Assembly: GCA_038279365.1 (NCBI GenBank)
Contig: JAYODI010000007.1
Location: 34,997 to 52,060, forward strand
DNA length: 17,064 nt
Origin: Candidatus Latescibacterota bacterium
Lineage (GTDB): Bacteria > Latescibacterota > UBA2968
Reading direction: 5' to 3'
Below, in pieces: positions 1 to 17,064 of this stretch. Both the position numbers and the translations under genes were made by a program. Numbering within the stretch: the first letter of the stretch is position 1; each line of letters begins with the position of its first letter. The notes beneath the pieces are model-generated. The model was not told where the DNA came from and ran no database searches. It was given only the letters and a program-made list of their open reading frames with translations.

Positions 1-44
1 AAAACCAAGTCATAAACACTTAAACGCCAAGCTCAAAACATTCA

Positions 45-93
45 CCATCTGCCATTTGCCGTTTCACGTTTGCCATTTGCCATTTCACGTTTG
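45..93. repeat. Tandem heptamer array (7 units, consensus MCRTTTS) with a higher-order 21-bp duplication
   Basis: ccatctg ccatttg ccgtttc acgtttg ccatttg ccatttc acgtttg; 52-72 and 73-93 differ at one base. Lies 5 nt past the stop codon of the dehydrogenase. Confidence 0.9.
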
Positions 94-98
94 CCCAC

Positions 99-1046: not shown

Positions 1047-1088
1047 AAAAGCCCCTATAAGAAACAATCCATTGAATATGAACGCATA

Positions 1089-1718: not shown

Positions 1719-3130
1719 CCATCTGCCCTTCCCTGACGTGCAAGCAATAATTTTTGACCTGATGCCACTTGTTTCAATACCGAATCTCGGCCCGTCCCCC
1801 CATATAAATTTCGTTGTGCCGTACTTTGTACGGGTGACAACACGGTTTTAATGTCTTCATCAAAGACATTCGATGCGGCTTTTAACGTCTCCAAATCTAA
1901 GGCTTCCAAACGCACCCCCCGATCCAGCGCGGTGCGTACCAATTCTCCCACAATGCGATGGCTTGTTCTAAAAGGTACCCCTTTTCGCACCAAATAATCG
2001 GCCAAATCGGTTGCCAAAATCATGCCATCTAAAGCCGATGTCATACGCGCCCCCTTCACCACCATCGTTTCCCAGGCACCAGCAAAAACATCTAAAGAAA
2101 TACAGATGGTATCCACCGTATCAAAAAAGGGTTCTTTGTCTTCTTGCATATCTTTGGCATATGTCAATGGAATGGCTTTCATCACAGTGAGCAACGACAT
2201 CAAATTGCCATAGACACGGCCTGTTTTACCACGCACCAATTCCAAAGAATCGGGGTTCTTCTTTTGAGGCATCATGCTCGACCCCGTGCTAAATGCGTCA
2301 TCCAACTCAACAAAACCAAACTCCGAAGACGACCACATAATGAGGTCTTCACAAAATCGGCTCAGGTGCCCCATTAAAATGGAAGCCGCCGACATAAACT
2401 CCAAATAATAATCGCGATCACTCACGGCATCTATGCTGTTATCGGTGACACGCTCAAAACCAAGTGTTTCACGCACAAATTCGCGATCCACAGGAAAAGC
2501 ACTGCCAGCCAATGCACCAGACCCCAATGGCATCGCATTTGCGCGCGCCCAACAATCCACAAACCGACCTCGATCGCGATCCAACATCCAAAACAAGGCC
2601 ATTGCATAATGGGCAAACCGAATGGGCTGCGCTTGTTGCACATGGGTATAACCTGGTAAAATCACATCCAGATGTGCTTCTGCCGATTGCAACAAAACCT
2701 GCATCAAACCATCAATGCGCGTTACAGTCTCATCAACGGCTTGCCGCAAATACAACCGCTCATCCAATGCCACCTGATCGTTGCGGCTTCGCCCCGTATG
2801 AATCTTGGCACCCGCATCGCCCACCAACGCCGTGAGGCGTTTCTCAATGGCCATGTGAATATCTTCCAAATCATCTGTCAAAGGCAACTGTCCGGCATCC
2901 AATTCACTTTCGACCTGATCCAACCCTGCAAGCACCTGATCGCGCTCGGCTTCACTTAATACCCCAATGCGCGTCAAGGCTTTGGCCTGTGCCCGGCTAC
3001 CCTCAATATCTACCTTGTATAAACGTTGATCAAAACCAATGGACGCATTAAACTTTTCCATCAACTTTTCAGTCGACTTCCCAAAACGCCCCCCCCAGAG
3101 TTTTTCTGAAGAAGATTGTGATTCACTCAT
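1715..3130 (-). CDS. argH: Argininosuccinate lyase
   Basis: KLWGGRF, EDIHMAIE, HTGRSRNDQVA, PGYTHVQQAQP, fumarate-lyase signature GSSMMPQKKNPD, ATDLADYLVRKGVPFR. Start placed at ATG 3130 (MSESQ) after AAAGG. Confidence 0.97.
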   Translation of the reverse strand: MSESQSSSEKLWGGRFGKSTEKLMEKFNASIGFDQRLYKVDIEGSRAQAKALTRIGVLSEAERDQVLAGLDQVESELDAGQLPLTDDLEDIHMAIEKRLTALVGDAGAKIHTGRSRNDQVALDERLYLRQAVDETVTRIDGLMQVLLQSAEAHLDVILPGYTHVQQAQPIRFAHYAMALFWMLDRDRGRFVDCWARANAMPLGSGALAGSAFPVDREFVRETLGFERVTDNSIDAVSDRDYYLEFMSAASILMGHLSRFCEDLIMWSSSEFGFVELDDAFSTGSSMMPQKKNPDSLELVRGKTGRVYGNLMSLLTVMKAIPLTYAKDMQEDKEPFFDTVDTICISLDVFAGAWETMVVKGARMTSALDGMILATDLADYLVRKGVPFRTSHRIVGELVRTALDRGVRLEALDLETLKAASNVFDEDIKTVLSPVQSTAQRNLYGGTGRDSVLKQVASGQKLLLARQGRADG

Positions 3131-3151
3131 CTCAAAACCTTTCATAAACAA

Positions 3152-3218
3152 CAAAGTGCATAGACGCTTGGCCCAAAGCCCATCGCTATGCACTTTGCCT
3201 TTTGCGCGTTGCGCTCTA
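3152..3218. repeat. Intergenic hairpin (perfect 12-bp inverted repeat) within a heptamer-phased array between argG and argH
   Basis: caaagtgcatag (3152-3163) / ctatgcactttg (3186-3197); the right arm is part of cgctatg cactttg ccttttg cgcgttg cgctcta (3184-3218). Confidence 0.75.
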
Positions 3219-4472
3219 AATGCCTTCTAATAAATCTTTCTCAATTTGACCCGCAGCATGTTCGGCTTTGGCACTTACCCCCAACACATTCAAAAAACCT
3301 TCCGAATCGCGGTGATCATAATCGCCCACATCTTCCATGGAAGCCGTTTCTTCCGAATATAAAGAATGAGGCACATCTTTCGACGCTTTAAATGTCACGG
3401 TGCCCTTATAAGCCGCCACGGTGACTTCACCTGTTAATAAATTGGCCACGGGCTTAAGCGCACCGCGCATCATTTGCGAAGCCAAATCGTAATAATATCC
3501 TTGGTAAATTTGCTCGGCCATATCAACCGAAATGGCATCATAAAACCTTCTGGCACGACGATCTAAAACCTGCTGAAGCAAAAACTCGTAACATTCACTG
3601 AGCAAACACAAACCAGGGCTTTCATAAACACCCCGCGACTTGATGCCCACAAAACGATTTTCAACCGTATGTATGCCAATGCCCACGCCATTACGCCCAC
3701 CCACTTCATTGGCTTTTAAAATCGCCTCAACGGCATTAACATCCACGCCATTAACATTTACAGGACGACCATTTTCAATACGCACCGTAAACAGTTCGGG
3801 TTTATCGGGTGCTTGTGCCGGAAACACACCCATGCCGGGTTCAATAAAATCTGCCGCCACTTCCAACGACTCCAACTTACCCGCTTCGTGAGTCAAACCC
3901 AAAAAGTTGGCGTCTGTTGAATACGGCTTTTCATAACTGGCCGTAATGGGCAATTTGTGCATGTGACAATAATCGATCATCTCCTTGCGCCCACCAAACA
4001 TATCTAAGTAGGCATTGTCGCGCCAAGGTGCATAAACCGACACCACAGGCTTGAGCATATTGGCCACCAATTGGAAACGCACTTGGTCATTGCCACGCCC
4101 TGTTGCACCATGAACCAATATATCAATGTTGCGTTTGTTCATCTCTTGCAACAAACCGCGCGTGGTCACATGGCGTGCAATACCTGTGGTATTCCAATAA
4201 CCACCTTCATAACGCGCTTGAGCAATCAACATGGCCACAGCCGTTTCTGCCAAATCTTGTTTTAAATCAATCAATACCGCTTCAGATGCACCACACGCCA
4301 ACATGCGCTTGCGAATATCGTCCATATCTATTTCATCGGGTTGACCAATATCACCCGTCAAACTCACCACATTCACGCCGCGATCCACCATCCACTTGGT
4401 TACCGTACAACTGTCTAACCCACCCGATGATGCCAACGCAACAGTTTTGCCACGCAAATCATTAATTGTCAT
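3216..4472 (-). CDS. argG: Argininosuccinate synthase
   Basis: PP-loop SGGLDS, HGATGRGNDQVRF, APWR, YSTDANFLG, VENRFVGIKSRGVYESPG; SD GGAAGGGA upstream. Confidence 0.97.
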   Translation of the reverse strand: MTINDLRGKTVALASSGGLDSCTVTKWMVDRGVNVVSLTGDIGQPDEIDMDDIRKRMLACGASEAVLIDLKQDLAETAVAMLIAQARYEGGYWNTTGIARHVTTRGLLQEMNKRNIDILVHGATGRGNDQVRFQLVANMLKPVVSVYAPWRDNAYLDMFGGRKEMIDYCHMHKLPITASYEKPYSTDANFLGLTHEAGKLESLEVAADFIEPGMGVFPAQAPDKPELFTVRIENGRPVNVNGVDVNAVEAILKANEVGGRNGVGIGIHTVENRFVGIKSRGVYESPGLCLLSECYEFLLQQVLDRRARRFYDAISVDMAEQIYQGYYYDLASQMMRGALKPVANLLTGEVTVAAYKGTVTFKASKDVPHSLYSEETASMEDVGDYDHRDSEGFLNVLGVSAKAEHAAGQIEKDLLEGI

Positions 4473-4523
4473 AAATCCCTTCCTCTCACAATCCTCAACC
4501 CTACACTGTCGTTTAAGACCAAA

Positions 4524-4563
4524 CGTGCCTCTCCCCCAAGAGGGAGAGGCACGGGGTGTAAAG
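4524..4563. repeat. GC-rich REP-like palindrome between argD and argG
   Basis: cgtgcctctccc (4524-4535) - ccaaga - gggagaggcacg (4542-4553), perfect 12-bp stem, followed by ggggtgtaaagg; resembles CCTCTCCC-N-GGGAGAGG type extragenic palindromes. No convincing U-tract on the minus strand. Confidence 0.7.
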
Positions 4564-4564
4564 G

Positions 4565-5755
4565 TTAACTCAAAAATTCGTCCAAAGCAGCCACGGCAAT
4601 GTCAATATGTTCTTTTTCGATAACCAACGGCGGCAAAAACCGAATCACATCGGGCCCTGCCACACACACCAAAATATTCTTTGCCCGCAGTGCGGTCACC
4701 GCATCATTGGCTGGTGTATCTTTGATTACAATACCGGCAATCAAACCTTTACCACGAATTGCGGTCACCTTGTCATGTTTTTCTTTCAACGCATTCAATT
4801 TGCCAAATAAATAATCACTCTTTTCTTGTACGCTTGCGATAAACGTTGGATCAGACAAGGTTTTAAACACCTCAACCGCCACCGCACACGACACGGGATG
4901 ACCACCAAATGTAGCCGCATGATCACCTGGTTCTACAGCATTGGCCACATCTTGTGTCATCAATGTTGCACCAATGGGCAAACCGCCAGCCAATGGTTTG
5001 GCAAGGGTCATAATATCGGGCGTTACACCTGAATGTTGATAACAAAACAATTTGCCAGTACGCAACAAACCACTTTGTACTTCATCAAAAATAAGCAACA
5101 TTTTCATTTCGTCACACAGTGTGCGCAACCCTTCTAAAAACTTAGGATCGGCAAAATAGATGCCCCCCTCAGCCTGCAAGGGTTCTAAAATAACAGCCAC
5201 AGTTTCACTATCTGCCAATTTTTCTACAGACTCCATATCGTTCAAATCGGCAAATGAAATCCCTGGCAACATCGGCCCAAACCCTTTGTGATACTTAGGT
5301 TGTCCCGTTGAAGAAATGGAACCATATGTGCGACCGTGAAAAGAATTTTTCAGCGAAATAATTTTGTTTTTGGGTTTGTCAGGAAAGTTTTTATATCCCC
5401 ATTTTCGGGCAAATTTCAATGCCGCTTCAATAGACTCGGTACCACTGTTGCAAAAAAAGGCACGATCGGCAAATGAGTTTTCACACAACAACTGCGCCAA
5501 CTGAGGTGCAGGAATGGTGTGATACAAATTGGATACATGAATCAACTTGCCCAATTGGGCATTGGCGGCATCTTGAATCAACTTGTTATTATATCCCAAT
5601 GCATTGACAGACAAACCACTTACAAAATCGAGATATTTTTTCCCATCTGTATCTTGCAAATAAACACCGTCACCACTTTCTAACACAAATTGTGGCCGAC
5701 CATAGGTTTGTAAAATATACTTCTGTTCCAGGTCTATGACTTCTTTTGTGGTCAT
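4565..5755 (-). CDS. argD: Acetylornithine aminotransferase (class III PLP-dependent)
   Basis: YLDFVSGLSVNALG, HVSNLY, FFCNSGTE, SFHGRT, EPLQAEGG, FDEVQSG, TLAKPLAGGLPIGA (PLP lysine), TFGG, IRFLPPL; arg operon context. Start at ATG 5755 after AGGAG. Confidence 0.95.
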   Translation of the reverse strand: MTTKEVIDLEQKYILQTYGRPQFVLESGDGVYLQDTDGKKYLDFVSGLSVNALGYNNKLIQDAANAQLGKLIHVSNLYHTIPAPQLAQLLCENSFADRAFFCNSGTESIEAALKFARKWGYKNFPDKPKNKIISLKNSFHGRTYGSISSTGQPKYHKGFGPMLPGISFADLNDMESVEKLADSETVAVILEPLQAEGGIYFADPKFLEGLRTLCDEMKMLLIFDEVQSGLLRTGKLFCYQHSGVTPDIMTLAKPLAGGLPIGATLMTQDVANAVEPGDHAATFGGHPVSCAVAVEVFKTLSDPTFIASVQEKSDYLFGKLNALKEKHDKVTAIRGKGLIAGIVIKDTPANDAVTALRAKNILVCVAGPDVIRFLPPLVIEKEHIDIAVAALDEFLS

Positions 5756-5837
5756 GATCACTCCTATTTTTATTGAACGTGAAGAACGCAAAAAAGAGGC
5801 TCTTGCCAAAGTCTTCTTGCGAGATCCGTTCCCAATT

Positions 5838-6722
5838 TTATTGTATAATCTCGGTGCCAATGCCTTCACGCGTAAACGTTTCAAGCAACAACGCATGTGG
5901 CACACTGCCATCTATAATATGTGTTTTGCGAACACCGCCTTTCACTGCACGCTCACAAGCGCGCAGTTTAGGAATCATGCCCCCCTTTGCAATGCCATCA
6001 GTAATCAACCCTTCCACATCATTGACATGCAAAGATGAAATATGAGAGCTTGGGTCTGAAGGGTCGCGCATAATGCCGTTGACGTCTGTCAAAAACACCA
6101 ACTTCTCAGCTTGTAATGCACGCGCAATTTCACCCGCGGCTGTATCGGCATTCACATTATAACTCTCACCATCGGGTCCTAGCCCAATGGGGGCAATCAC
6201 AGGAATCGTACCCTCTTCACAGGCCAAACGGATGGGTTCGGGGTCAATTCGGGCCACATCGCCAACATATCCGATGTCTACCTGTTTCTTTTCCCCATTT
6301 TCCTCCACCGTGGCCAAATATTTGGTCACATACATGACCCCAGCATCTTTGGCAGACATGCCACGTGCCCGCCCATCCAACATTTCCAAACCATCGCATA
6401 TACGACGATTTACTTCACCAAACAGTGTATCTTCAACAACCTGCATCGATGCTTTGTCGGTTACGCGCAACCCATTAATCCATTGAGATGCAATGCCCGA
6501 TGCTTCCAACCGTCGGCTAATCTCTTTGCCCCCACCATGCACCACAACAGGGCGCATGCCCACTGTTTCCATAAACACCAAATCGGCCATAACCGTTGGC
6601 GAACCACCTTCATTAGGTTGTGTACTGCCCCCATATTTCACCACCACAATCTTATTGCGAAATGAGCGAATATAAGGGAACGCCTCAATCAGCGTTGATG
6701 CTTTTTCAATAATTTTGTCCAC
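5838..6722 (-). CDS. argB: Acetylglutamate kinase
   Basis: EAFPYI, VVKYGGS, VVHGGGKEI, GLRVTD, YNVNAD, LTDVNG, GGMIPK, HIIDG, GIGT. Start either GTG 6722 (after GGGGGA) or ATG 6755 (abutting the upstream stop). Confidence 0.96.
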   Translation of the reverse strand: MDKIIEKASTLIEAFPYIRSFRNKIVVVKYGGSTQPNEGGSPTVMADLVFMETVGMRPVVVHGGGKEISRRLEASGIASQWINGLRVTDKASMQVVEDTLFGEVNRRICDGLEMLDGRARGMSAKDAGVMYVTKYLATVEENGEKKQVDIGYVGDVARIDPEPIRLACEEGTIPVIAPIGLGPDGESYNVNADTAAGEIARALQAEKLVFLTDVNGIMRDPSDPSSHISSLHVNDVEGLITDGIAKGGMIPKLRACERAVKGGVRKTHIIDGSVPHALLLETFTREGIGTEIIQ

Positions 6723-6755
6723 AAAATCCCCCTGCTGGGTTTCATCTTTCAACAT

Positions 6756-7850
6756 TTATATCACTTCCAAATAGTCTTTATCAGGCAGTGCTGGAAACGG
6801 TGCTGCAGGTAGCGTTTGATACCAATACGCCACTGAGGCTATATCATCTTGCAAAGGCAAATAACGACGCCCCTCACTGGTTCGGTTGCGCCATCCCAAG
6901 GCTTGTATGGTTACCCGCAAGTCTTCTTCAAATCGCACAGGGTCCATAATATGCCAGCGATACATGCCAAAACGCGTTTGTGAATCGTACAAACCATCAG
7001 GCCGAATCACCTGAGGCAAACCCGCATAGGGTGTGGTAAATTCACGATACCCACCCCGATCTTTGCCCAAATCAAAATTGTATGACCCACAAAAATAATC
7101 TTCTGTGCCCGTACCACATATGGTGGGAAATTCGCCATCACCATCCATATAAAATTTGATCTCGCCTTCCCCCCACCATTGCGTACTGTTCACACCCCAA
7201 GCCATATAAACACCCACCAAATGCCCCTTGCCTTTTATGCCATCTACAATCGTATACACATCTTTATACGGCAATGGATTGGTTCGACGAAATTGTGCAT
7301 GAAAATAGGCACATTCTTCTGGCACTTCGGTCAATGTGTAATTGACCTGATAATAAAGTGTCATTGGATCTTCTGCAATATTCTCTAAGGTAATGCGACA
7401 CCGCTTTCGAAAAGGCATTTCCCAATAACAATTAAAGGCACTGCCAGGGTTTACACACACGGGCAAAGAAGTCACTTGTGCATAACGGCCCCAACCACAT
7501 GCGAAAAAATCACCTACGGGACATTCAACCGATGGTTCGTCTTGACCATCCCAATAAATACGCAAAATACTAAATCGCCAATGTCCTGTGGGTGTCATCC
7601 AAATCTGTTGAATGGCACCTTGTCCATCTATATCTGCCAATGTAAATGTTTCACCGGGTTGAATCCGCACAGATGGCGAAACCTTCCACCCCTGCCCCAA
7701 ATCACGTGCAGGCCCAGCACCAGTCCCTTCGATGGCCATGCCGCCTTTGCCTTTTTCACCCGTAAAATTTTCTGGGCTGATTGACCGCGTAACCGCATTG
7801 GACAACTGAGACAAGTTGCCCAAATGAAGACCCAAACCGTTAAAACGCAT
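6756..7850 (-). CDS. Glycoside hydrolase family 172 (DUF2961) protein
   Basis: TRSISPENFTGEKGKGG, IYWDG, PVGDFF, NCYWEMPF, YFHAQFRR, WWGEGE and GTGTEDYF (the two catalytic Glu motifs of GH172), YRWHIMDP, DDIASVAYWYQ; SD GGAGG; no signal peptide. Confidence 0.9.
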   Translation of the reverse strand: MRFNGLGLHLGNLSQLSNAVTRSISPENFTGEKGKGGMAIEGTGAGPARDLGQGWKVSPSVRIQPGETFTLADIDGQGAIQQIWMTPTGHWRFSILRIYWDGQDEPSVECPVGDFFACGWGRYAQVTSLPVCVNPGSAFNCYWEMPFRKRCRITLENIAEDPMTLYYQVNYTLTEVPEECAYFHAQFRRTNPLPYKDVYTIVDGIKGKGHLVGVYMAWGVNSTQWWGEGEIKFYMDGDGEFPTICGTGTEDYFCGSYNFDLGKDRGGYREFTTPYAGLPQVIRPDGLYDSQTRFGMYRWHIMDPVRFEEDLRVTIQALGWRNRTSEGRRYLPLQDDIASVAYWYQTLPAAPFPALPDKDYLEVI

Positions 7851-7865
7851 AACGCCCCTCCAAAA

Positions 7866-8633
7866 TTAACTCTCTAATGTGCGATACCAATAACGATACA
7901 ATTCTTCAAAACCAATCGACTCATACACATGCAATGCAGGTGCATTGCTTTCTTCTACTTGCAAATAAGCCATTTTTGCACCAGCTTTGCGTGCCCGATT
8001 TAGCAACGTCCACACCAACAACCGGCCATAACCTCGGTTGCGCTTTTCTTTGTCGGTCACCAAGCCAAACAGACCCGCAAATTCACCCTCGCGAATCGTA
8101 AACCCACCGGCAACAGGTTCATCACCATCCATCAACATCACAAATCGAGCCGGTACAGCCAAATTGTCCATCATATCACGAAACGCTTCTTCATCATAAT
8201 CGCTGAGTTCTTTCAATTTCACATAGGTATGAAACCATTCCGGATCAGGGCGTGTCCACACCCGCACATCGCCCGTTTCGGGAATCACAACCTTGTACAA
8301 ATCCAGAGTCTCTATCAATGTTACCGCTTCATAACCATAACCGCGAGCCGCCAAAACAGAATCCAATTGAGGGGGCTGATTTAAGGGCGTCATTTTAAAA
8401 ATAGGACGCAAACCCCGCTCTCGATACATGGCTTCACAAACCGGAATCTTTTCATCCACACTGCGATGTCCCCTATAGATGGGGCTGACAGAATTGGCCC
8501 GACGCGTATACCCATCGGCCAAGCGAATCACCCAACCATCGTATAAAACCTGTTGCATCGCAGGACATGCATTTAAACATCGCTCTTCTATATCGCGAAT
8601 TTTTTGCCCCGCTTCTGTCTGAAAAACGTCCAT
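7866..8633 (-). CDS. GNAT family N-acetyltransferase (YobR-like two-domain type)
   Basis: N-terminal DGWVIR..GYTRRANSV family motif; acetyl-CoA motif RNRGYG; YLQVEESNAPALHVYESIGF. Start at ATG 8633 after GGAG. Confidence 0.9.
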   Translation of the reverse strand: MDVFQTEAGQKIRDIEERCLNACPAMQQVLYDGWVIRLADGYTRRANSVSPIYRGHRSVDEKIPVCEAMYRERGLRPIFKMTPLNQPPQLDSVLAARGYGYEAVTLIETLDLYKVVIPETGDVRVWTRPDPEWFHTYVKLKELSDYDEEAFRDMMDNLAVPARFVMLMDGDEPVAGGFTIREGEFAGLFGLVTDKEKRNRGYGRLLVWTLLNRARKAGAKMAYLQVEESNAPALHVYESIGFEELYRYWYRTLES

Positions 8634-8714
8634 AAACACTCCAACAACCCGCTCTCAGCACCCAACCTCGATGCGCAAATAGGAAGATTGAGTCAAAAAC
8701 GACACTGACCGTCA

Positions 8715-9659
8715 TCAGCTTGTTTTATAAGCCCCATCTATGCCATGGAGCCGTGACAAACCTTGCATCAAATTCATATTCTCAACAGCTTGACTCGCCG
8801 CACCTTTGCCCAAATTATCTTCTAAGGCATTAATATAAACAAACCCATCATCCACCCCTAACTTTATCACCAACAAATGTGTGCCCACCACATCTCGCGT
8901 GCCCCACACATGATCTGCGGAATCTTCGACCACTTTTACCAAATCATCATCGACATATGCAGAAGCAATGGCCGCCCGAAGTTTTACCGCCACCTCACTG
9001 GCCGTTTGCGCTTTCAAATCGTCACTCAATGCCACACGGATGTTGGAATTAATGCCCGCAAATACAGACCGCAAAACAATGGGTGTAAAATTTACAGCAA
9101 ACCCTGAATACAACGCCATCTCTGGCACATGTTTGTGTTTTTTTCCAAAACTATAGGTCACTTCATTGGCCGTTTCTTCTACTTCAGCCCGTGCCCCCGA
9201 ATTGCCCGATGTAGCAACAACAGTGGCTTCACCTTGTATCAACCCCTTAAGTGGGCGCAAAGACAATATCACGCTGGTCGGATAACAGCCAGGGTTGCCC
9301 ACCAACCGCGCCGAGGCAATCTGTTCGGCAAACAATGCAGGCATCCCATAAACCGATTCTTTGAGCAACTCTGGTGCCGTGTGCGTTAAGCCATAACCCG
9401 CTTCAAACTGCTCCACTGGCAAGCGAAAAGCACCGCTCATATCAATAACCTTGCACCCTGCCGCCAATGCTACAGGTGCAAACTGCATCGATTCGGGGTC
9501 TTTGGTAGCCAAAAACACCACATCACACTTTTCCAACTCACCTTCTTGGCGTTTGGAATTTTGTTTAAACGTTACTTCGGCCTGGTCGTGATGAGCCAAC
9601 ACCTTTTGAAGCTCTTGCCCCACCATGCCCGTATCGCCAAATATGCCCACAGAAATCAT
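8715..9659 (-). CDS. argC: N-acetyl-gamma-glutamyl-phosphate reductase
   Basis: GDTGMVG nucleotide-binding loop, VIDMSGAFRL, YGMP, catalytic NPGCY, HKHVPE, DNLGKGAASQAVENMN; ATGA overlap with argR stop. Confidence 0.95.
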   Translation of the reverse strand: MISVGIFGDTGMVGQELQKVLAHHDQAEVTFKQNSKRQEGELEKCDVVFLATKDPESMQFAPVALAAGCKVIDMSGAFRLPVEQFEAGYGLTHTAPELLKESVYGMPALFAEQIASARLVGNPGCYPTSVILSLRPLKGLIQGEATVVATSGNSGARAEVEETANEVTYSFGKKHKHVPEMALYSGFAVNFTPIVLRSVFAGINSNIRVALSDDLKAQTASEVAVKLRAAIASAYVDDDLVKVVEDSADHVWGTRDVVGTHLLVIKLGVDDGFVYINALEDNLGKGAASQAVENMNLMQGLSRLHGIDGAYKTS

Positions 9660-10129
9660 GGCATCATCTCCTCAATTCGATCACGCAAACGCCGACAATC
9701 TACTTCAGATCGGCACAAAATAAAAATAGTATTTTCACCAGCCAAAGTCCCCACAACCTCTGGCCAACTCACCTGATCAATGGCCTCACATACACCTTGT
9801 GCATGCCCAGTGATGGTCTTAATCACAGCCGTATGTCCCGCACCATCTACCCGCATCACAAAATCGCGCAATTCCCGCCGCAACAAGGCATCACCTTTAA
9901 GCAAAGCACGCCCAATGGGTTCACTTGCTGAAGGCACCTGATATTGAAACCCACCCGCACCATCGGGCGCTTTAACCACACCCAATTCTTTAATGTCTTT
10001 AGACAACGTAGACTGTGTTGTATCAATACCCACAGCCTTGAGCGCATCACTCAAACCTTCTTGACGCGCAATGGGTTGCGAAGAAATCAGTTCCAAAATT
10101 TTTTGATGGCGTTTTTGCTTCTCAGTCAT
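9656..10129 (-). CDS. argR: Arginine repressor
   Basis: KRHQKILELI, TQSTLSKDIKELG (winged HTH), VIKTITG, VVGTLAGENTIFI; heads the arg operon. Start at ATG 10129 after GGAGG. Confidence 0.92.
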   Translation of the reverse strand: MTEKQKRHQKILELISSQPIARQEGLSDALKAVGIDTTQSTLSKDIKELGVVKAPDGAGGFQYQVPSASEPIGRALLKGDALLRRELRDFVMRVDGAGHTAVIKTITGHAQGVCEAIDQVSWPEVVGTLAGENTIFILCRSEVDCRRLRDRIEEMMP

Positions 10130-10158
10130 ACACCCTCCATAGTTCAAACAGACTTAAG

Positions 10159-10187
10159 AATGTATCACAATGCCACAATCACGTCAA
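10159..10187 (-). promoter_or_regulatory. Sigma70-type promoter of the arg operon
   Basis: Minus strand TTGACG (10187-10182), 17-nt spacer ending in TGA (extended -10), TACATT (10164-10159), about 30 nt upstream of the argR start. Confidence 0.8.
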
Positions 10188-10222
10188 GAATAAAAATTCT
10201 AACATTGGAATATTTATGGAAT
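10185..10222. promoter_or_regulatory. Tandem ARG-box-like operators
   Basis: Cores AGAATAAAAATTCT (10187-10200) and GGAATATTTATGGA (10207-10220), 20-bp period, versus consensus TGMATwwwwATKCA; the first abuts the -35 hexamer. Confidence 0.7.
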
Positions 10223-10258
10223 AAAAAAGTGTAGAGACAATTTTATCTCTACACTTTT
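10223..10258 (-). terminator. Intrinsic terminator downstream of the S9 peptidase (possibly bidirectional)
   Basis: aaaagtgtagaga (10225-10237) / tctctacactttt (10246-10258); minus strand reads hairpin then TTTTTT. Confidence 0.85.
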
Positions 10259-10362
10259 CCCATTGAGTCAATTTCAACGTTTTTTATAGCACGATTCCCA
10301 AAGTTTATTAACAAGGCCAAGTCCTACTCTGGATTGATTTGCTCCTAATCTCTGAAGCAAAT

Positions 10363-12702
10363 TCAATTTTCCTTAGCATAGGTATCCAGCCACGTCACCA
10401 TCTCCCACAACATATGCATCAACGACTCACGTGCCCGATAGCCGTGACTCTCGTGTGGCAACATCACCAATCGACACGTTACACCGTGGCCTTTGAGGGC
10501 ATTGTAAAACCGTTCGCTCTGCATTGGAAATGTGCCCGAATTGTTATCGGCCTCACCGTGCATCAACAACAAAGGTGCTTTGATCTTGTCGGCATGCATA
10601 AAAGGTGACATGGCGGCATACACTTCAGGTGACTGCCAAAGTGAACGTTCTTCGGCCTGAAAGCCAAACGGGGTCAGTGTGCGGTTATAAGCCCCACTTC
10701 GGGCAATGCCACAACAAAACAGATCGGTGTGCGCCAACAAATTGGCCGTCATAAAACCACCGTAAGAGTGCCCCCCCACACAAATGCGCTTTGGATCGGC
10801 CACACCCAGGCGTACCACCTCATCAACCGCCGCTTTGGCACTTGCTGTTAATTGTTTCACATATGTGTCATTGGCTTCCAAATCACCTTCACCCACAATG
10901 GGCATAGATGGTCCATCCAAAATTGCATACCCACTGGCCAACAACGGCAATGCAGAAAGTGGGCTGATGCGCACAAATCGATAGGGTGAATCTTTGACCT
11001 GCCCTGCGGCATCAGCACTTTTAAACTCACGAGGGTAAGCCCACATCAGCAAAGGCAAAGGCCCCGTTTCTTTTTTATAACCCGGTGGCAAATACAACGT
11101 TGCATTCAGTTGAACACCATCTTCACGCTCATAAACAATCAGCTCTTTTTGCACATCGACCAAATGGGGTAAGGGATGTGTAAAATGCGTGACCTGTTTG
11201 ACTTTGTTGGTGGACAAATTTTGTAAAAAATAATTGGTCGGCTCTTGCACCGATTCTCGCCCCAGCAAAACCAACGGGCCATTGACATCAATCACAGCCA
11301 CTGGCCGTTCATAAAGGGGCGGCATGGAATGCATCAACCGCTTACTCGCCTTTGTTTTTAAATCGTAGCTGTCTAAAAACGGGCGATCACCCTCATTGGA
11401 AGCCCCATCACCCACCAAAAACAAAAACCGCTCATCTGCATCGGTTTGCAACACACGCCGTCCTGTGGCATTGCGCACCAACAGTGGCACACCTGGGTCA
11501 CCATAGCGATCTTCCCAAGACCGATCAAACAAAATCTCGGGTTTGACGTTGCCATCGGGATAAATACGCCACGTGCGAATCCGACGGGTTTTCCACCATC
11601 TCTCAGACACCAAAGCCAAATTGCCACTGCCCCAAGTGCGCCCCACATAACGCATAGAAAGGGCAATGATCTCTAATGGCTCGGCATCAAATGGGGCATT
11701 TAGGGCAAACATCCGATCACGCACATCCACCTCAACCGAAGGATCTCCCCCATCTTGTGCGGTCACCCACGTGACCGTTGCGGGCACATCTGCACGCCAA
11801 CCAAACCCACGTGGACCATCGGGCACCGCATCAAATGCAATGGGCACAGACTCTGCCAAAGGCAAATCAAACAATGGGCGCACCATTTGCCCCTTGCTGT
11901 CCCAAATATCAACACGCACAGGAAATCGATAAGAAGGCACCAAATAAGAAAAAGGACGGTGCATCGTTTCAATCAAAATAAATTGACCATCGGGAGAAGG
12001 TTCCGAACGGCATATCAAATCGGGTGCACCTAATTTTTGCATCGTACCATCTAAATAAACACACACAACTTGCGCCATACAGTAATACTCAAACAACGCT
12101 TCATCGTGTGGATTTTTAAGCAAATCTTGATAGGTGCGCGAAGGTGCTGTCTGCGCGATATTCTCTTGAATGACAGGCCCATCGGGAATCAAGACCGCCT
12201 CTGGTGGTGCACCTCGCCCCTCACAAACGGCACGCACGATAAGCCCCGAACCATCGGGTAACCAAACCAGTGGCGTGCCCCAAATGCTGTTTAAAACCAA
12301 ACCTTCAATCGGTCTCACCTCACCCGTGGCCACCTCACCCAACCACAATGTAATCCCATGAGATCCGGTAACAGAAAAAGCAAAGTATTGGCCATTGGGC
12401 GACCAATGTGCTTGCCCCAATCGTGCCCCATCAGGCAAACCTTTCACAGCCATTTCTTGCCCATCATCCACACGTTTAAGCGTCAACCCATTATAATGGC
12501 TCACACGGCTTTGTCCATTGGTCATAGGATCTATGCGCACCCCTGCCAAACGCAACTCTAACCGTGCCACATCTTCGATGGGGGGGTAGCCTGGTCGATG
12601 CATCAACAACATATGGGTATGCGAAGGATCCAAACTGATCCCTGGCGTTAAAGGTGCATCAACCACATCGGCAAGTGCCTTGGGTGGCATTTGATAAGGC
12701 AT
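10363..12702 (-). CDS. S9 family serine peptidase, glutamyl endopeptidase (CGEP/S9D)-like
   Basis: Triad motifs GGHSYGG (Ser), HGEADNNSGT (Asp), PHESHGY (His); WAYPREF, ARSGAYNRTLTPFGFQ, RTYQDLL typical of the CGEP-like group; N-terminal propeller WSP repeats; SD GGAGG. Confidence 0.9.
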   Translation of the reverse strand: MPYQMPPKALADVVDAPLTPGISLDPSHTHMLLMHRPGYPPIEDVARLELRLAGVRIDPMTNGQSRVSHYNGLTLKRVDDGQEMAVKGLPDGARLGQAHWSPNGQYFAFSVTGSHGITLWLGEVATGEVRPIEGLVLNSIWGTPLVWLPDGSGLIVRAVCEGRGAPPEAVLIPDGPVIQENIAQTAPSRTYQDLLKNPHDEALFEYYCMAQVVCVYLDGTMQKLGAPDLICRSEPSPDGQFILIETMHRPFSYLVPSYRFPVRVDIWDSKGQMVRPLFDLPLAESVPIAFDAVPDGPRGFGWRADVPATVTWVTAQDGGDPSVEVDVRDRMFALNAPFDAEPLEIIALSMRYVGRTWGSGNLALVSERWWKTRRIRTWRIYPDGNVKPEILFDRSWEDRYGDPGVPLLVRNATGRRVLQTDADERFLFLVGDGASNEGDRPFLDSYDLKTKASKRLMHSMPPLYERPVAVIDVNGPLVLLGRESVQEPTNYFLQNLSTNKVKQVTHFTHPLPHLVDVQKELIVYEREDGVQLNATLYLPPGYKKETGPLPLLMWAYPREFKSADAAGQVKDSPYRFVRISPLSALPLLASGYAILDGPSMPIVGEGDLEANDTYVKQLTASAKAAVDEVVRLGVADPKRICVGGHSYGGFMTANLLAHTDLFCCGIARSGAYNRTLTPFGFQAEERSLWQSPEVYAAMSPFMHADKIKAPLLLMHGEADNNSGTFPMQSERFYNALKGHGVTCRLVMLPHESHGYRARESLMHMLWEMVTWLDTYAKEN

Positions 12703-12715
12703 AAAACCTCCGTAA

Positions 12716-12799
12716 GGGTGGAGAGAAGAAAAAAGGGAAAAGAAAGAAGAGGATAAAACGCCCCTCTATCCTCTTCCTATTTTCTTCTTTCTTCTTCCA
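12716..12799. repeat. Purine/pyrimidine imperfect hairpin of heptamer units (NNNAAGA / TCTTNNN)
   Basis: Left arm gagaaga aaaaagg gaaaaga aagaaga ggataaa; right arm tctatcc tcttcct attttct tctttct tcttcca; perfect core gaagaggata / tatcctcttc. Confidence 0.75.
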
Positions 12800-12806
12800 T
12801 CATGCT

Positions 12807-13946
12807 CTATTGATCAAACCATTTTTTATAATAAAAAGGACTTGAAACATCTTCGTTGAGTTGCTTCACCACTTCATAAAAGTGCAAATCCAGTGGCATT
12901 TCGTGTGCGTCTAAGCGAGGGAAAGGGTTAAAATCATCCGTGGCCAAAACCTTGCCTATTTCAGCCAACATGCCCAAGCCCAACTCGGGCACATCTACGC
13001 GCCGAATCCCTGCTTTTTCCATGACCTTGTCATAAACAAATGACATGGTCGATCCTCCAGGAATAAAGGGCAATGCGCGTGTTCGCATCACGGGCAAAAA
13101 GATATCGACCAATTTTTTACCTGTGCCATAGGCTGCCGATGTGGCTGCTTGCAAGGCATCTTTGGGCAAATACAAACTGGTCGAATAAGCACCATTACGC
13201 CCATATTCAACCGCTTGAGGATCGCGGCTGATTTTGTCCAAACTGCCACGCCAATCGCAAAATGCCGAAACCGCCACCGAAATACCCGCATCCACTAACG
13301 CATCTGTAAATTGCACCGCCATATCGCCCATAAACAAACGCGTGGCCTCAATTGCGCGATCGTTTAATGGGGTTAATTGCCACTGAAACAAACCTTCATC
13401 ATCCACATCTTTCACAAATACAGGCGGATGATCAGGCAACAAACCCGAGCTGGCCGCCGCCATCGAATTGATATAAATCACATCTTTGGCATTGGCCTCT
13501 TGAAGTGCCGCAACAATCGCATCCAATGCTTTTCCTTCTAAAGCATAACCATCGTTAATCCAGTGAAAGCGATTGCCCATATTTGCAGCATCAGCACGTT
13601 TTTGCATATCGGCTCCAGAAGCATATCCCAAAGACTTCGACAAATCACGTGCCACAACCGTCAAACTGCCACTGTCTTTCACCAAATCCAACAATGCCGC
13701 CACCACAGCACACCCAATGCCCAAACCCGTGCCACCAATAATCACAAAATGTTGTCCTTTTGCCCAATCCAAATCATAATTGTTCCAAAATATTTTTTGC
13801 GCCGCTTGGCGTTCATCTAACAACTGCTTGGCCTCTGTTGGAAAAGCTTCTACAGCTTCTTTGCTTGGCCGCTCTATGGCTGGCGCACCTTCTTTAATAC
13901 GCAACCCTGGTGTAGGTTGAGCAAACGGACTTGGAGATGAGACCAT
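12807..13946 (-). CDS. Hypothetical protein, distant FabV / trans-2-enoyl-CoA reductase-like oxidoreductase
   Basis: VIIGGTGLGIG Rossmann loop; YINSMAA, IEATRLFMG, TRALPFIPG, KVMEKAG and RLDAHEM occur in the same order as FabV/Ter motifs. Start at ATG 13946 after GGGAGG. Gene certain, family tentative. Confidence 0.65.
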   Translation of the reverse strand: MVSSPSPFAQPTPGLRIKEGAPAIERPSKEAVEAFPTEAKQLLDERQAAQKIFWNNYDLDWAKGQHFVIIGGTGLGIGCAVVAALLDLVKDSGSLTVVARDLSKSLGYASGADMQKRADAANMGNRFHWINDGYALEGKALDAIVAALQEANAKDVIYINSMAAASSGLLPDHPPVFVKDVDDEGLFQWQLTPLNDRAIEATRLFMGDMAVQFTDALVDAGISVAVSAFCDWRGSLDKISRDPQAVEYGRNGAYSTSLYLPKDALQAATSAAYGTGKKLVDIFLPVMRTRALPFIPGGSTMSFVYDKVMEKAGIRRVDVPELGLGMLAEIGKVLATDDFNPFPRLDAHEMPLDLHFYEVVKQLNEDVSSPFYYKKWFDQ

Positions 13947-14130
13947 ATAATCCTCCCTATTGAATGACAAAATACGCATTTAATCTGCACACAAATATAT
14001 CAAAATGATCCAAAATCAATGATGCCCCAACACACGATTATTGCACAACGCAAAACATGCACAGCCCTTATCATCAAAACGTCTGACACCAACAAATTCA
14101 TTCACGACAAACACCTTATCGTGCCAGACC

Positions 14131-16656
14131 TCACGCACCAGTGCCTCTTTGCCCTTCCCAATCAATCGAATAACCCGTTAGCTCAAAAAACATGGCGGCA
14201 ACTTTTTGGCGATCTTCATCACCAGGCACATGGATCACAGGCACCACCACTCGGTCTGGATATATTTTGGGGGCACCGCGCATCACCCACGCATCAGGGG
14301 TCAATTCACGTGCTTTTTGAGAAATTAATTCTTGGTTCGACGATGGGCGCACCTGCACCCCCCAACCAATGCGCTTTCCCAGCTCATTCATTAACGCTTG
14401 ATATCGCGCCCCTACTTGCGGAGAAATAAATGCCAGCTCGATATATGTACCCTTTAAACCAATCTTAGAGGGCATATGTTTTTCTTTTTGAAACGCCCGA
14501 CGGATTTCTTGATATGCTCTGTTAATTTCCCAAGCCCCTTTATTTTTGGGCCCAGCTGTAATCGCCACCTTTTCATCTGGGCGATCTAATACCAAGTGAA
14601 ATCCCGTTCGGCCATTAAAATCATCTTCCGCTTTCTTTTTTAACATCGCCCAATCTGTAACATCTTTATCAACCGCAACAGCAACAACCACCTCGCGCTG
14701 CCCCAAACGCAATGCAGGTGCTTTAAGAGCCGTTGCTCCTTGTGGCACCATAGCATTTGCCTCTTCAAACAAACGCCCCTGATGCGGTGTTTCTCGAAGG
14801 CGCAATGTCCAGCCCGTCTCCTCTTCTAACCGCTTTAGCAAGTCGCCATATTGCGATACAATCACATCGGGAAAGTGAAACGCCAACTCATACACACCCT
14901 CATCCACAAAGGCACTACACTTAAACAAACCCGCTTCTGCCGGAAAGGCATTTTGTATGCGCAAGCGGGCTTCGTTCATTTCCATAGGGCCATCATAAGC
15001 CCCCGTATCTTCGGCCACATGATATAAAAACGGACGACGGCGGTCAGGCTCAAAATACCGCCGACCTTCACGCAATAACAAACGAAAAGCTTCTACTTCA
15101 GAAAGGGTGGTCATTTCACTTCCAAACCACATTTCAGCCAACTCCTGTACGCGAAAAGGGCCTTTTGCATCGGTCTCAATGACATACGCACGCACCTCTT
15201 CAAGCGTGGTATCACTCAGTGCGCGCCCACCAGAAATGCCCGAACGAGGCACACGGCGGCCATATCCTTTGCGACTGCGTGTTTGTTCAACCTCAACCGT
15301 ATAAGAGCCACCGTTTTCGGGCAATTGAACCCCATCGGGCAAATGCGCATCCAAACCCACAGCCAATGCTTTGCGCGCATCGTCATCGCCATGAACCAAA
15401 AAACACGTGCGCGGTTTTAATCGCTGAACCAACCCCGTTAACTCACCACTGTCTGCGTGTGCAGATAACGAATAGGGTTCCACACGACAGGCCACAGACA
15501 CACGTTCACCATTGAGCATCAATACCCGATCTTGGCCATCTTTGTTCTGCATCAAATCCAACAGGGCACGGCCAGGAGATTCTTCATCTTGATATCCTGT
15601 CATCGCAATCAAATTGTTTGCTTCACGCGCCAATCGTTCGGCATAATAACTCGATGCCCCACCAATCAGCATGCCCGAACTGGCCACAATACAACACGGT
15701 GGGCCAGATAACACACGGGTGCGATCTGATGGTTTATCGACAGACATCACATGTTCGGCATAAAAAACAGCCTCACCCTTATCCACTTTTCGGCGCAGTG
15801 GAGGGGCCAAATCGTCAACAAAAGAGGCATACACCGCATTCACCGCACGCACCATTCCGTCCACATAAATCGGAAAGGTTGGAATATCGCCACGCCGCAT
15901 CGCTTGTGCCAAAATCAAAATCACTTCTTGTGCACGCCCCACAGCAAAAGCAGGAATAAGCACCTTACCTCCTGCCTCAATCACCTGAGCCACACGCATC
16001 GCCAACGCCGTCTCTTGCTGAGATCGGTCGGCATGTTGGCGATTGCCATAGGTCGATTCCATCACCATCACATCGGGGCGACACTGAGGCACCACCATGC
16101 CAGGAATGGTGAGTTGATTGGCCACAGACACATCACCCGTCATCAACACACTCTCATGTTTGCCTTCAATGTAAATAGACGCCGCACCCAAAATATGCCC
16201 CGAAGGAACCCATGTAGCCGACAAAGCCCCACCACAAATAGGTACTGTGGCGACCCAAGGAACATCTTCAATTCTCGCCAATGCCGCATCGGCTGCCTCG
16301 GGTGGATACAGAGGCAACTCGCCATCTTTTTCGCCCCTTTGCGCCATCAACTTCACCGCATCAGACATCAAAACCTGCGTGATGGCTTTGCTTGCAGGCG
16401 TCATGCGTATCTTTACCTCAGGTGCCAAACTCGCCACCAACACAGGCAAAGCCCCCGTATGATCCGTATGTGCGTGTGTCACCAACATCTCTTCAGGCAT
16501 GCCCACATCATCCAAAACCGAAAAATTGGGCAACTGAGAACCTTGCGCCGCTCCCATACGAATGCCCGCATCAACCAAAATGCGATGACCTTCCATTTCT
16601 ATGAGTGTACAAGACGCACCAACTTCATCGGCACCGCCTAAAAAGTGCAGTTTCAT
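14131..16656 (-). CDS. MBL-fold beta-CASP ribonuclease (CPSF73/aCPSF-like) with long C-terminal extension
   Basis: LGGADEVGASC, VDAG, THAHTDH (HxHxDH), SGHILGA, TGD, ESTYG, IPAFAVGRAQE, GYQDEESPGR, SAHAD, VHGD; core ends near residue 450, followed by about 390 extra residues. Confidence 0.92.
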   Translation of the reverse strand: MKLHFLGGADEVGASCTLIEMEGHRILVDAGIRMGAAQGSQLPNFSVLDDVGMPEEMLVTHAHTDHTGALPVLVASLAPEVKIRMTPASKAITQVLMSDAVKLMAQRGEKDGELPLYPPEAADAALARIEDVPWVATVPICGGALSATWVPSGHILGAASIYIEGKHESVLMTGDVSVANQLTIPGMVVPQCRPDVMVMESTYGNRQHADRSQQETALAMRVAQVIEAGGKVLIPAFAVGRAQEVILILAQAMRRGDIPTFPIYVDGMVRAVNAVYASFVDDLAPPLRRKVDKGEAVFYAEHVMSVDKPSDRTRVLSGPPCCIVASSGMLIGGASSYYAERLAREANNLIAMTGYQDEESPGRALLDLMQNKDGQDRVLMLNGERVSVACRVEPYSLSAHADSGELTGLVQRLKPRTCFLVHGDDDARKALAVGLDAHLPDGVQLPENGGSYTVEVEQTRSRKGYGRRVPRSGISGGRALSDTTLEEVRAYVIETDAKGPFRVQELAEMWFGSEMTTLSEVEAFRLLLREGRRYFEPDRRRPFLYHVAEDTGAYDGPMEMNEARLRIQNAFPAEAGLFKCSAFVDEGVYELAFHFPDVIVSQYGDLLKRLEEETGWTLRLRETPHQGRLFEEANAMVPQGATALKAPALRLGQREVVVAVAVDKDVTDWAMLKKKAEDDFNGRTGFHLVLDRPDEKVAITAGPKNKGAWEINRAYQEIRRAFQKEKHMPSKIGLKGTYIELAFISPQVGARYQALMNELGKRIGWGVQVRPSSNQELISQKARELTPDAWVMRGAPKIYPDRVVVPVIHVPGDEDRQKVAAMFFELTGYSIDWEGQRGTGA

Positions 16657-16700
16657 GTCGCGTACCCGGTCATTGTGGAATGTGATCGTTTACCTTCACA

Positions 16701-16769
16701 AGCCAGATGTAAGACACAAGAAGTAAAAAGGAACACACACTTCTTGCCTCTTGCCTCTTATTTCTGGCT
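16701..16769. repeat. Imperfect hairpin of heptamer units in the predicted 5' UTR of the beta-CASP gene
   Basis: Left agccaga tgtaaga cacaaga agtaaaa (16701-16728); right tcttgcc tcttgcc tcttatt tctggct (16742-16769); units pair in register. Confidence 0.7.
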
Positions 16770-16776
16770 GCCACAG

Positions 16777-16805
16777 AATATACACCCACACCCACACGAA
16801 TCCAA
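16777..16805 (-). promoter_or_regulatory. Candidate sigma70 promoter for the beta-CASP gene
   Basis: Minus strand TTGGAT (16805-16800), 17 nt, TATATT (16782-16777); lies downstream of a probable terminator. Confidence 0.5.
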
Positions 16806-16882
16806 ACCTTTTGAACAAATAACACATCAAGAATTGTTCGTGTCTACAAAAAACAAAATGACTCATTTCCCAAATTGTTTTA

Positions 16883-16929
16883 CAAACAAATGTGAGCGAC
16901 TCGCATATTACATACAAATCGCTCACATT
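16883..16929 (-). terminator. Probable intrinsic terminator of the upstream partial gene
   Basis: aatgtgagcga (16889-16899) / tcgctcacatt (16919-16929), 11-bp perfect stem extendable by G-U pairs on the minus strand, then TTTGTTTG; 27 nt after the TAA at 16957. Confidence 0.6.
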
Positions 16930-16956
16930 CTTTCGCCACACAAACCCAGCAACAGA

Positions 16957-17064
16957 TTAAAGCGCACGGTTATCCAATGCATATGCCAAATTTCCACCAC
17001 TCCCCAAAGCCCATGTGCCTCGAAACAGCGACTGGCGTTTTTTAGGCATCTTTTCAATAATTTC
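16957..17064 (-). CDS. 3' end of an unknown gene entering from the right edge (partial)
   Basis: Open frame from the edge: EIIEKMPKKRQSLFRGTWALGSGGNLAYALDNRAL-stop, followed by a terminator-like hairpin. Too short to assign. Confidence 0.5.
   Translation of the reverse strand, partial: EIIEKMPKKRQSLFRGTWALGSGGNLAYALDNRAL

Follow-up and report, generated by a model that had tools for sequence, protein, structure and literature searches.

A CPSF73/aCPSF1-like beta-CASP nuclease of a Latescibacterota bacterium with a winged helix and a duplicated KH-like C-terminal tail

Beta-CASP nucleases of the CPSF73 type drive 3'-end formation and transcription termination in eukaryotes and archaea, and among the bacterial beta-CASP enzymes only RNase J and the short TTHA0252-like proteins have been studied. 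What, then, does a bacterium do with a nuclease of this type that carries a long tail behind its catalytic core? We addressed this question for a gene of 841 codons in a 17,064-nucleotide stretch (hereafter the window) of a Candidatus Latescibacterota bacterium (assembly GCA_038279365.1, contig JAYODI010000007.1, positions 34,997 to 52,060). The original prediction, made from the sequence alone, had described the product as a CPSF/FttA-like ribonuclease in which the core is followed by a basic linker, a possible winged helix and two modules with KH-like (K homology) domains. It covered window positions 14131-15220, which correspond to residues ~480-841 and the stop codon, with the basic linker falling just beyond. 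All strings that it quoted were present in the product in the order given (RSRKGYGRR at residue 460, LEEVRAYVI at 485, FLYHV at 543, MEMNEARL at 558 and WEINRAY at 709). We established the architecture, the duplication in the tail, its fold similarity, the active-site motifs, and the size and spread of the family; the protein may act as an RNA nuclease that is guided by its tail.

The open frame comprises 852 residues. Because only 11 more codons are open upstream of the ATG, the gene has no N-terminal extension and no N-terminal KH region. The core was intact, as had been predicted. All seven motifs of a beta-CASP enzyme were located: the metallo-beta-lactamase (MBL) motifs 1-4 (D29, HAHTDH at 61-66 for HxHxDH, H154 and D175) and the beta-CASP motifs A (D/E; here E200), B (H; H400) and C (H; H422). 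A histidine at motif C is reportedly, after Callebaut et al. 2002, typical of the RNA-acting members. Excerpts of PMC3553952 list histidine at both motif B and motif C for such beta-CASP enzymes. Judged by its motifs, the protein is a catalytically intact CPSF73/aCPSF1-type beta-CASP metallo-nuclease.

The best NCBIfam model of the protein was that of aCPSF1 (TIGR03675, E 3.2e-83), with residues 2-448 aligned to model positions 176-624 and no match in its KH part. The second was the model of the type VII CRISPR effector Cas14 (NF045584, E 3.4e-72), and the RNase J model (TIGR00649, E 4.1e-8) covered residues 2-77 only, with 32.1 bits against a cut-off of 400. In the PDB the core ranked closest to aCPSF1 (2xr1, 6.9e-53), followed by CPSF73 (9.1e-52), IntS11 (2.6e-49), Cas14 (8yhd, 5e-48), FttA (1.4e-47) and TTHA0252 (4.4e-35), so the closest relatives in sequence are RNA-acting beta-CASP enzymes. 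With CPSF73 and IntS11 the core shares E-values of ~1e-49 to 1e-52 over residues 5-455 and the presence of an extension behind the core; their own C-terminal domains were, however, not among the listed structural matches of the tail. TTHA0252 and RNase J are likewise bacterial MBL/beta-CASP ribonucleases, but TTHA0252 is more distant in its core and has no tail, and the C-terminal domain of RNase J was not among the listed fold matches. Cas14, although a close core relative, was matched with 243.7 bits against a cut-off of 800 and has a different C-terminal region, and no cas genes lie beside the nuclease gene in the window.

The original prediction had also suggested an inverted FttA-like architecture that could act in RNA processing or factor-dependent termination. 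The order itself, KH-like domains C-terminal to a CPSF-type core, held, whereas the functional part gained no support from the analyses. The protein does not belong to the aCPSF1/FttA family, of which a further hallmark is a termination activity on elongation complexes that Spt5/NusG stimulates. The protein scored 280.1 bits against the curated cut-off of 580.2 of TIGR03675, its residue 2 falls on model position 176, and the GXXG loop of KH domains is not conserved. Based on score, domain order and loop we consider the protein to be a CPSF73/aCPSF1-like bacterial beta-CASP nuclease and not FttA. It shares with aCPSF1/FttA (TIGR03675; 2xr1, 2ycb, 3af5, 9bct) the MBL/beta-CASP core type and the KH-type-II-like domains. 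The KH pair of aCPSF1 is N-terminal, before the MBL domain, whereas the KH-like domains here are C-terminal; and in place of two KH domains there are four related domains in two modules, together with a winged helix.

The tail contains two duplicated modules, at residues 555-695 and 708-837. Smith-Waterman alignment of residues 553-704 with 705-841 gave a score of 88, compared to 27.7 +/- 4.7 for shuffled sequences (z 12.9), and none of 1000 shuffles reached it, which bears out the two aligned modules that had been proposed. Plain blastp of the tail against itself returned the identity match only. Each module had further been said to consist of two sub-repeats. This was not seen in the single sequence, where alignment of the half-modules within each module was not significant (z -1.0 to 0.35, calibrated with shuffles); it was seen with profiles that were cut by domain from an alignment of 38 tails drawn from several phyla. 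When these were compared with hhalign, five of the six pairs of half-modules (A1 and A2 of the first module, B1 and B2 of the second) were related with probabilities of 90-99.5%: A1-B1 99.5%, A2-B2 99.1%, A1-A2 96.1%, A1-B2 94.2% and A2-B1 90.5%. The sixth, B1-B2, gave 33%, and the winged helix, used as a control, gave 0.1-0.9% with each of the four half-modules. From the repeat score and the relations among the family profiles, the tail is a duplicated two-domain module whose two domains are distantly related to each other.

The most conserved feature common to the half-modules is the helix-[TI]G[WFY]-strand junction, found where it had been quoted (ETGW at 613, RTGF at 683, RIGW at 762 and LTGY at 826). 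Type II KH domains end in a similar way to a junction of the form helix-[ST]G[WFY]-strand. In tail numbering, which becomes protein numbering when 449 is added, the T/G at positions 235-236 and 378-379 and the G-W at 166-167 are near-invariant. P596 (present in A1 of all 38 aligned sequences), G749, R751, Y752 and the ME-x-N helix starts are also conserved in the family.

The tail was modelled with AlphaFold2 from 61 sequences. The mean predicted local distance difference test score (pLDDT) was 87.6, with at least 90 at 284 of 392 residues, and the predicted template modelling score (pTM) was 0.45; the single domains are therefore confident and their mutual arrangement is not. The model begins with a disordered basic linker (tail residues 1-18), followed by three helices and two strands at 35-98. 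A Foldseek search of the PDB gave 11 matches at E<=1e-3, and eight of these were aCPSF1/FttA chains (best 9bct_J, 1.6e-5), in agreement with the proposal that the tail resembles the KH domains of aCPSF1. The others were two NusA chains and one type III secretion system (T3SS) protein, YscD.

With VIA-align, A1 (tail 105-175) superposed on KH2 of aCPSF1/FttA (3af5 78-146, 2ycb_A 67-137, 9bct_J 75-142) with Z 9.0-8.2 and a root-mean-square deviation of 2.1-2.5 A over 67-69 residues, at 16-19% identity; the upper end of this range (Z 9.0-8.8) had 2.2-2.3 A over 68-69 residues and 18-19% identity. In a VIA search independent of Foldseek, B1 (tail 254-324) was placed on KH2 of 3af5_A (75-146) with Z 7.6 and 2.0 A over 64 residues. 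The boundaries of KH2 were taken from excerpts of PMC3095777 and PMC11616081. For both domains the best solved match was KH2 of aCPSF1/FttA and not KH1, and both have a fold like that of type II KH domains by this superposition; the predicted order of elements is H-E-E-H-E with one long helix in A1 and H-E-E-H-H-E in B1. Like the KH1-KH2 pair of NusA, whose chains were among the Foldseek matches of the tail (E 6e-4 to 9e-3), these domains resemble type II KH domains, but unlike those of NusA, uS3 and Era they have no GXXG, and the Z-scores to uS3 (6.4-7.1) and NusA (5.7) were below those to aCPSF1 KH2. Of the four degenerate KH-like domains that had been proposed, A1 and B1 are thus supported by structure; A2 and B2 count as KH-like because of their profile relation to A1 alone. 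Residues 480-841 were uninformative in the ESM Atlas, where the best score (0.79) was probably to their own family.

The segment between linker and modules had been proposed as a possible winged helix. When folded alone (83 residues, 35 sequences) it reached a pLDDT of 90.1 and a pTM of 0.82, with three helices (14-24, 33-41, 48-60) followed by a beta-hairpin wing (strands 65-67 and 74-77). Among the matches listed, nearly all Foldseek rows and all 50 VIA rows were winged-helix domains, including Zalpha/Zbeta, IclR/TtgV, MarR, Fur, the C-terminal winged-helix domain of kleisin, TFIIE-beta, the N-terminus of RNase R and the C-terminal domain of the MBL ribonuclease LACTB2. All of these were weak (best E 0.023; Z 5.4-6.6). 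The prediction supports the fold class and no specific family. Human LACTB2 shares the order of an MBL-fold ribonuclease followed by a winged-helix-like domain (4ad9_A 215-288, Z 6.1-6.2, a generic level), but it lacks both the beta-CASP insert and a KH-like array. W510, F535 and R541 are near-invariant in the winged helix of the family. The coordinates are collected in Table 1.

Table 1. Features of the nuclease gene and of its surroundings in the window
Feature	Residues	Window positions	Strand	Basis or remark
Whole gene, beta-CASP nuclease with C-terminal tail	841 aa	14131..16656	-	Stop codon 14131-14133; open reading frame list and translation
MBL/beta-CASP catalytic core	1-449	15310..16656	-	NCBIfam and PDB matches over residues 2-448; motifs located
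Basic low-confidence linker, isoelectric point 10.8	450-483	15208..15309	-	Tail residues 1-18 pLDDT <50
Winged helix (H-H-H-strand-strand)	484-548	15013..15207	-	Stand-alone fold prediction
A1, KH-type-II-like domain without GXXG, acidic	555-624	14785..14994	-	VIA superposition on aCPSF1/FttA KH2
A2, alpha-beta-beta(-beta)-alpha-beta domain akin to A1	625-695	14572..14784	-	hhalign A1-A2, A2-B2
B1, first domain of second module		14338..14535	-	hhalign A1-B1; VIA on 3af5_A KH2
B2, duplicate of A2	774-837	14146..14337	-	hhalign A2-B2, A1-B2
FabV-like protein	390 aa	12807-13979	-	Downstream of the nuclease gene
Terminator-like hairpin, 15 pairs		12778-12744	-	After the 390-aa gene
Arginine cluster		1715-10147	-	
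Open reading frame inside arginine cluster	364 aa	6756-7850		No NCBIfam match at E<=1e-5
argB		5838-6755		
argD frame		4565-5911		Overlaps argB by 74 nt

We then asked how common this tail is. A word-indexed search with the tail gave 77 proteins, almost all of ~830-860 residues; those with a name are listed as 'MBL fold metallo-hydrolase', 'Cft2 family RNA processing exonuclease' or 'uncharacterized protein'. Their precomputed Pfam matches were confined to the MBL, beta-CASP and RMMBL (PF07521) families, and no KH family was in these lists. An exhaustive search of 1.84 billion representatives, counted as clusters at 50% identity, found 430 clusters at E<=1e-3, 268 at E<=1e-10 and 43 at E<=1e-30. 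A beta-CASP core was present in 24 of the 30 tail members of long or odd length that were checked. The six without a core were P0103, P0172, P0209, P0219, P0190 and P0097, and two of them (P0209, P0172) are probably truncated, since their sequences start within the core or within the winged helix. P0103 (668 residues) has several modules behind a winged-helix-like start, and the number of modules varies (P0103, P0172), with up to five matched stretches. In P0165 (residues ~956-1020) and P0209 (~794-869) a domain like the N-terminal type of ParB/Spo0J stands after the last KH-like module. As far as sequence matches tell, the tail marks out a large family of bacterial proteins, in which it is nearly always fused to a beta-CASP core.

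In contigs sampled at one genome per species 67 loci were found, 20 of them labelled Latescibacterota. The labels of the other 47 were Clostridium, Thermoanaerobacterium, Thermoanaerobacter, Pseudobacteroides and other Bacillota, Chloroflexota, Deltaproteobacteria/Myxococcales, Vulcanimicrobiota, Microthrixaceae and Spirochaetaceae, and cultured members are found among the Clostridium, Thermoanaerobacterium and Pseudobacteroides species. The family has no name beyond 'MBL fold metallo-hydrolase'. A bacterial beta-CASP protein with a winged helix and a KH-like tail was not found described in the literature searched, which covers subscription journals thinly and leaves absence unproven.

The type of core, its intact motifs and the KH2-like domains suggest that the protein is an RNA nuclease targeted by its tail, a reading to which we assign a probability of about 50% and in which we infer the RNA substrate, the role of the tail and any cellular pathway. 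The core would cut RNA as an endonuclease and/or as a 5'-3' exonuclease, and the tail would be an arm for targeting, with which it grips single-stranded nucleic acid or a partner machine. According to excerpts of PMC11616081, PMC3095777 and PMC3553952, the KH domains of FttA and MTH1203 bind U-rich RNA and set the choice of cleavage site. The best candidates for nucleic-acid contact would be the basic linker (median net charge +3 across the 23 members of the family in which it occurs) and the basic B1 domain (isoelectric point 10.2 here; family median net charge +1). At approximately the GXXG position of B1 a G-x-[RK]-Y loop is conserved, with G749 in 31 of 38 sequences, R751 in 26 (and K in a further 6) and Y752 in 33. 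In MTH1203 the GXXG is at 114-117, and PMC3095777 proposes K115 and Y116 as RNA contacts. The near-gapless superposition ranges, taken with the GXXG position in MTH1203, place the equivalent stretch at ~600-604 in A1, which maps to 749-752 of B1 through the A1/B1 sequence alignment; the equivalence is thus one of ranges, not of a residue-level superposition. The varying number of modules also speaks for the targeting arm, as it is a common trait of binding arrays.

Several observations weigh against this reading. As had been noted at the outset, no conserved GXXG was found at the KH loop of any half-module in the 38 sequences: GxxG occurs anywhere in the domain in none of them for A1, in 3 for A2, in 13 for B1 and in 4 for B2. 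A1 is acidic (family median net charge -3.5). The best structural matches of A2 (C-terminal domains of the cation diffusion facilitator (CDF) transporters MamB/CzcD, and eS7; Z 7.2-8.0) and of B2 (the C-terminal domain of eS7, and FKBP26; Z 7.3) are generic folds, at a level that according to the tool can arise from a common arrangement, and the Z-scores of 7-9 overall exceed the tool's stated background of 7-8 only modestly. The ring-building domains of T3SS, which mediate protein-protein contacts, are among the tail matches (YscD, E 1.8e-4). At the level of sequence the tail matched no KH family and no solved KH domain: phmmer of the tail against the PDB gave no significant KH link (best E 0.013-0.47; 2ycb_A E 0.47), and the 38-row profile reached E 0.042 at best and picked up no KH protein there.

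Distribution and genomic context weigh in the same direction. Of the 151 genomes that were sampled from the phylum of the window, 36 had a match to the tail. These were 26 of the 29 genomes of its own family, 7 of 19 from the next, 2 of 64 from a third and none of the 38 from the others. The tail is thus patchy, whereas aCPSF1 is near-universal in archaea. In four of the 36 genomes (G085, G097, G126, G150) the match is to linker and winged helix only, in frames of ~520-640 residues or in a fragment, which suggests that a shorter form of beta-CASP core and winged helix without KH-like modules exists in the phylum. Frames of this length with matches confined to query residues 4-104 were noted in G074, G126, G150, G097 and G037. 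The genome of the window (6.03 Mb, 98.5% complete) also encodes Rho (700 bits), RNase E/G, two RNase Y proteins and two short beta-CASP paralogues (467 and 463 residues), and no RNase J above the cut-off. As this set of ribonucleases is already full, the long nuclease is an addition to it and not a replacement. Finally, no RNA-metabolism gene was conserved nearby in the neighbourhoods examined.

The degenerate loops and the acidic A1 keep a docking role for much of the tail in play. The tail could mainly be a protein-protein module for oligomerisation or docking and not bind nucleic acid, in parallel to other KH-like domains without GXXG (KHa of aCPSF1, the ring-building motifs of T3SS) and to the C-terminal dimerisation domains of RNase J, CPSF73 and IntS11. 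We consider this unlikely. Besides the missing loops, the family median net charges of A1, A2, B2 and the winged helix (-1 to -3.5) would suit such a role, and T3SS basal-body arrays (YscD, PrgH) and dimerisation domains of CDF transporters were among the Foldseek and VIA matches. Excerpts of PMC3095777 hold that the GXXG-less KHa of MTH1203 is probably no canonical RNA binder, and excerpts of PMC11616081 describe the C-terminal domains of CPSF73 and IntS11 as dimerisation modules for CPSF100 and IntS9. On the other hand, B1 and the linker are basic, the basic-aromatic pair of B1 is conserved at approximately the GXXG position, the best single-domain match was the RNA-binding KH2 of aCPSF1 and not KH1, and no partner is conserved in the neighbourhood. 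Modelling of the tail as a homodimer (2 x 392 residues) gave a score of 0.00 against a mark of 0.42 and weighs neither way on self-association.

In the window all long genes are on the minus strand. The GC skew of the plus strand was strongly negative in each 1-kb interval of positions 1-17064 (-0.14 to -0.32), which fits the location of every long gene on the minus strand and the richness of their coding strands in G. Downstream of the nuclease gene follow a 390-residue FabV-like protein, an S9-type peptidase and an arginine operon. The 390-residue protein had no NCBIfam or PDB sequence match, and the ESM Atlas put it near clusters of trans-2-enoyl-CoA reductase (PF12241) with scores of 0.93-0.94, which is a lead only. 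Its gene, of ~380 codons across the family, stands next after the nuclease gene at 14 of the 20 loci labelled Latescibacterota and at none of the 47 others, and thus reflects synteny of the lineage and not a conserved partnership. As a partner of the nuclease it was rejected, being reductase-like by this lead and missing outside the phylum, where the 47 loci have no general neighbour gene at all. The arginine cluster holds argR, argC, a CG3035-like relative of N-acetylglutamate synthase, argB, argD, argG and argH; the true start of argD is probably later, as its frame overlaps argB. Rfam gave no match on the window. Elsewhere in the genome the RNase Y genes (G000:C160:16958-18484 and G000:C96:9838-11370) were above the family cut-off with 687 and 602 bits, and one of them shares a contig with a short beta-CASP paralogue (C96:40351-41670).

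The neighbours at other loci, together with the patchy spread, keep a role in genome defence or DNA transactions in play. The nuclease would then be an accessory enzyme acting with SNF2-type helicases or SMC-like (Wadjet) systems, and the ligand of its winged helix and KH-like array would be DNA or foreign nucleic acid. JetA and JetB lie directly downstream on the same strand at two of the 47 non-Latescibacterota genome loci, starting 105-233 nt after the nuclease gene (L030, 4478-6636; L048, 2747-8632), and L048 also has JetC (TIGR02680, 493 bits, above the cut-off). These two loci are labelled as different phyla, from a Deltaproteobacteria and a Clostridiales metagenome-assembled genome. SNF2 helicases were found within two genes at three of the 47 loci (L033, 4385-6688; L042, 1123-4464; L047, 7250-9892), and the three SNF2-locus genomes that were checked contain just 3-5 SNF2-like matches each. 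We also examined 54 further metagenome loci, some of which duplicate genome loci (e.g. L090 and L036). SNF2 genes were within two genes at 2 of 43 of the metagenome loci (L083, 1194-5561; L113, 3822-6461 and 9222-11984); at L113 they flank the nuclease gene on both sides, one only 7 nt downstream, and at L102 an SNF2 gene (63-3116) is five genes away. In the Clostridium magnum record a second SNF2 gene is just upstream of the first. Genes for the M and S subunits of a type I restriction-modification system adjoin at L034, and a type II methyltransferase gene at L046.

The association with SNF2 looks non-random on these counts, in a minority of loci, and the loci of related organisms are not independent. 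The scatter over phyla, the ParB-like C-terminal fusions in P0165 and P0209, and the close core relationship to a defence effector, Cas14, would further fit a defence role. However, PADLOC 2.0 gave no family for the nuclease itself at E<=1. Among the 161 proteins encoded within two genes at the 47 loci (90 scanned at E<=1e-10 and 71 at E<=1e-20), 144 had no match, and several of the 17 matches, spread over 14 loci, were generic ATPases, kinases or regulators. The Latescibacterota gene lies in stable synteny with metabolic genes, and the histidine at motif C, reportedly typical of RNA-acting members, also speaks against this role. Searches of plasmids, phages and viral contigs, each with one distant query or pattern set and of limited sensitivity, turned up no relatives of the tail. 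A defence or DNA-transaction role is accordingly given a low probability.

Very unlikely, finally, is a bacterial analogue of FttA, that is, an RNA polymerase-coupled 'torpedo' that cleaves nascent RNA and aids termination or clears stalled elongation complexes, perhaps jointly with RapA-like SNF2 ATPases. In its favour are a core of the type found in FttA, CPSF73 and IntS11 and KH-like domains whose closest counterpart is KH2 of FttA. Against it stand the reversed order of the domains, their degenerate KH loops, the presence of Rho and the failure to find the gene in the majority of the genomes sampled from the phylum; nor did any neighbourhood examined show a link to nusG, nusA or rpo genes. 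The specific support for FttA-like termination is limited to the fold resemblance and a few RapA-like neighbours, and such a role is highly doubtful. The SNF2 neighbours were closest to the models of SCO1167, pilus-regulating Snf2, ZorD, DrmD and RapA, all below the cut-off and in varying orientation, with E-values to RapA of 8.4e-66 at L033 and 9.9e-65 at L113. Torpedo beta-CASP enzymes and RapA-related factors are both discussed in excerpts of the review PMC8501993.

In its most far-reaching form, which we regard as a long shot, several phyla would possess a domain-permuted counterpart of FttA whose KH2-derived C-terminal array reads nascent or foreign RNA and which works with SNF2/RapA-like ATPases on elongation complexes. 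If this were true, bacteria would have a second, Rho-independent and nuclease-driven route for termination or for the clearance of stalled RNA polymerase. The bacterial family defined here is large and unannotated, and combines a CPSF73-type core with a winged helix and a duplicated array of KH-like domains. It adds a case in which KH-like domains are found on opposite sides of one catalytic core in two domains of life. The domain boundaries, the conserved residues and the tractable hosts among its members open tests of targeted RNA processing, of RNA polymerase clearance or of defence.

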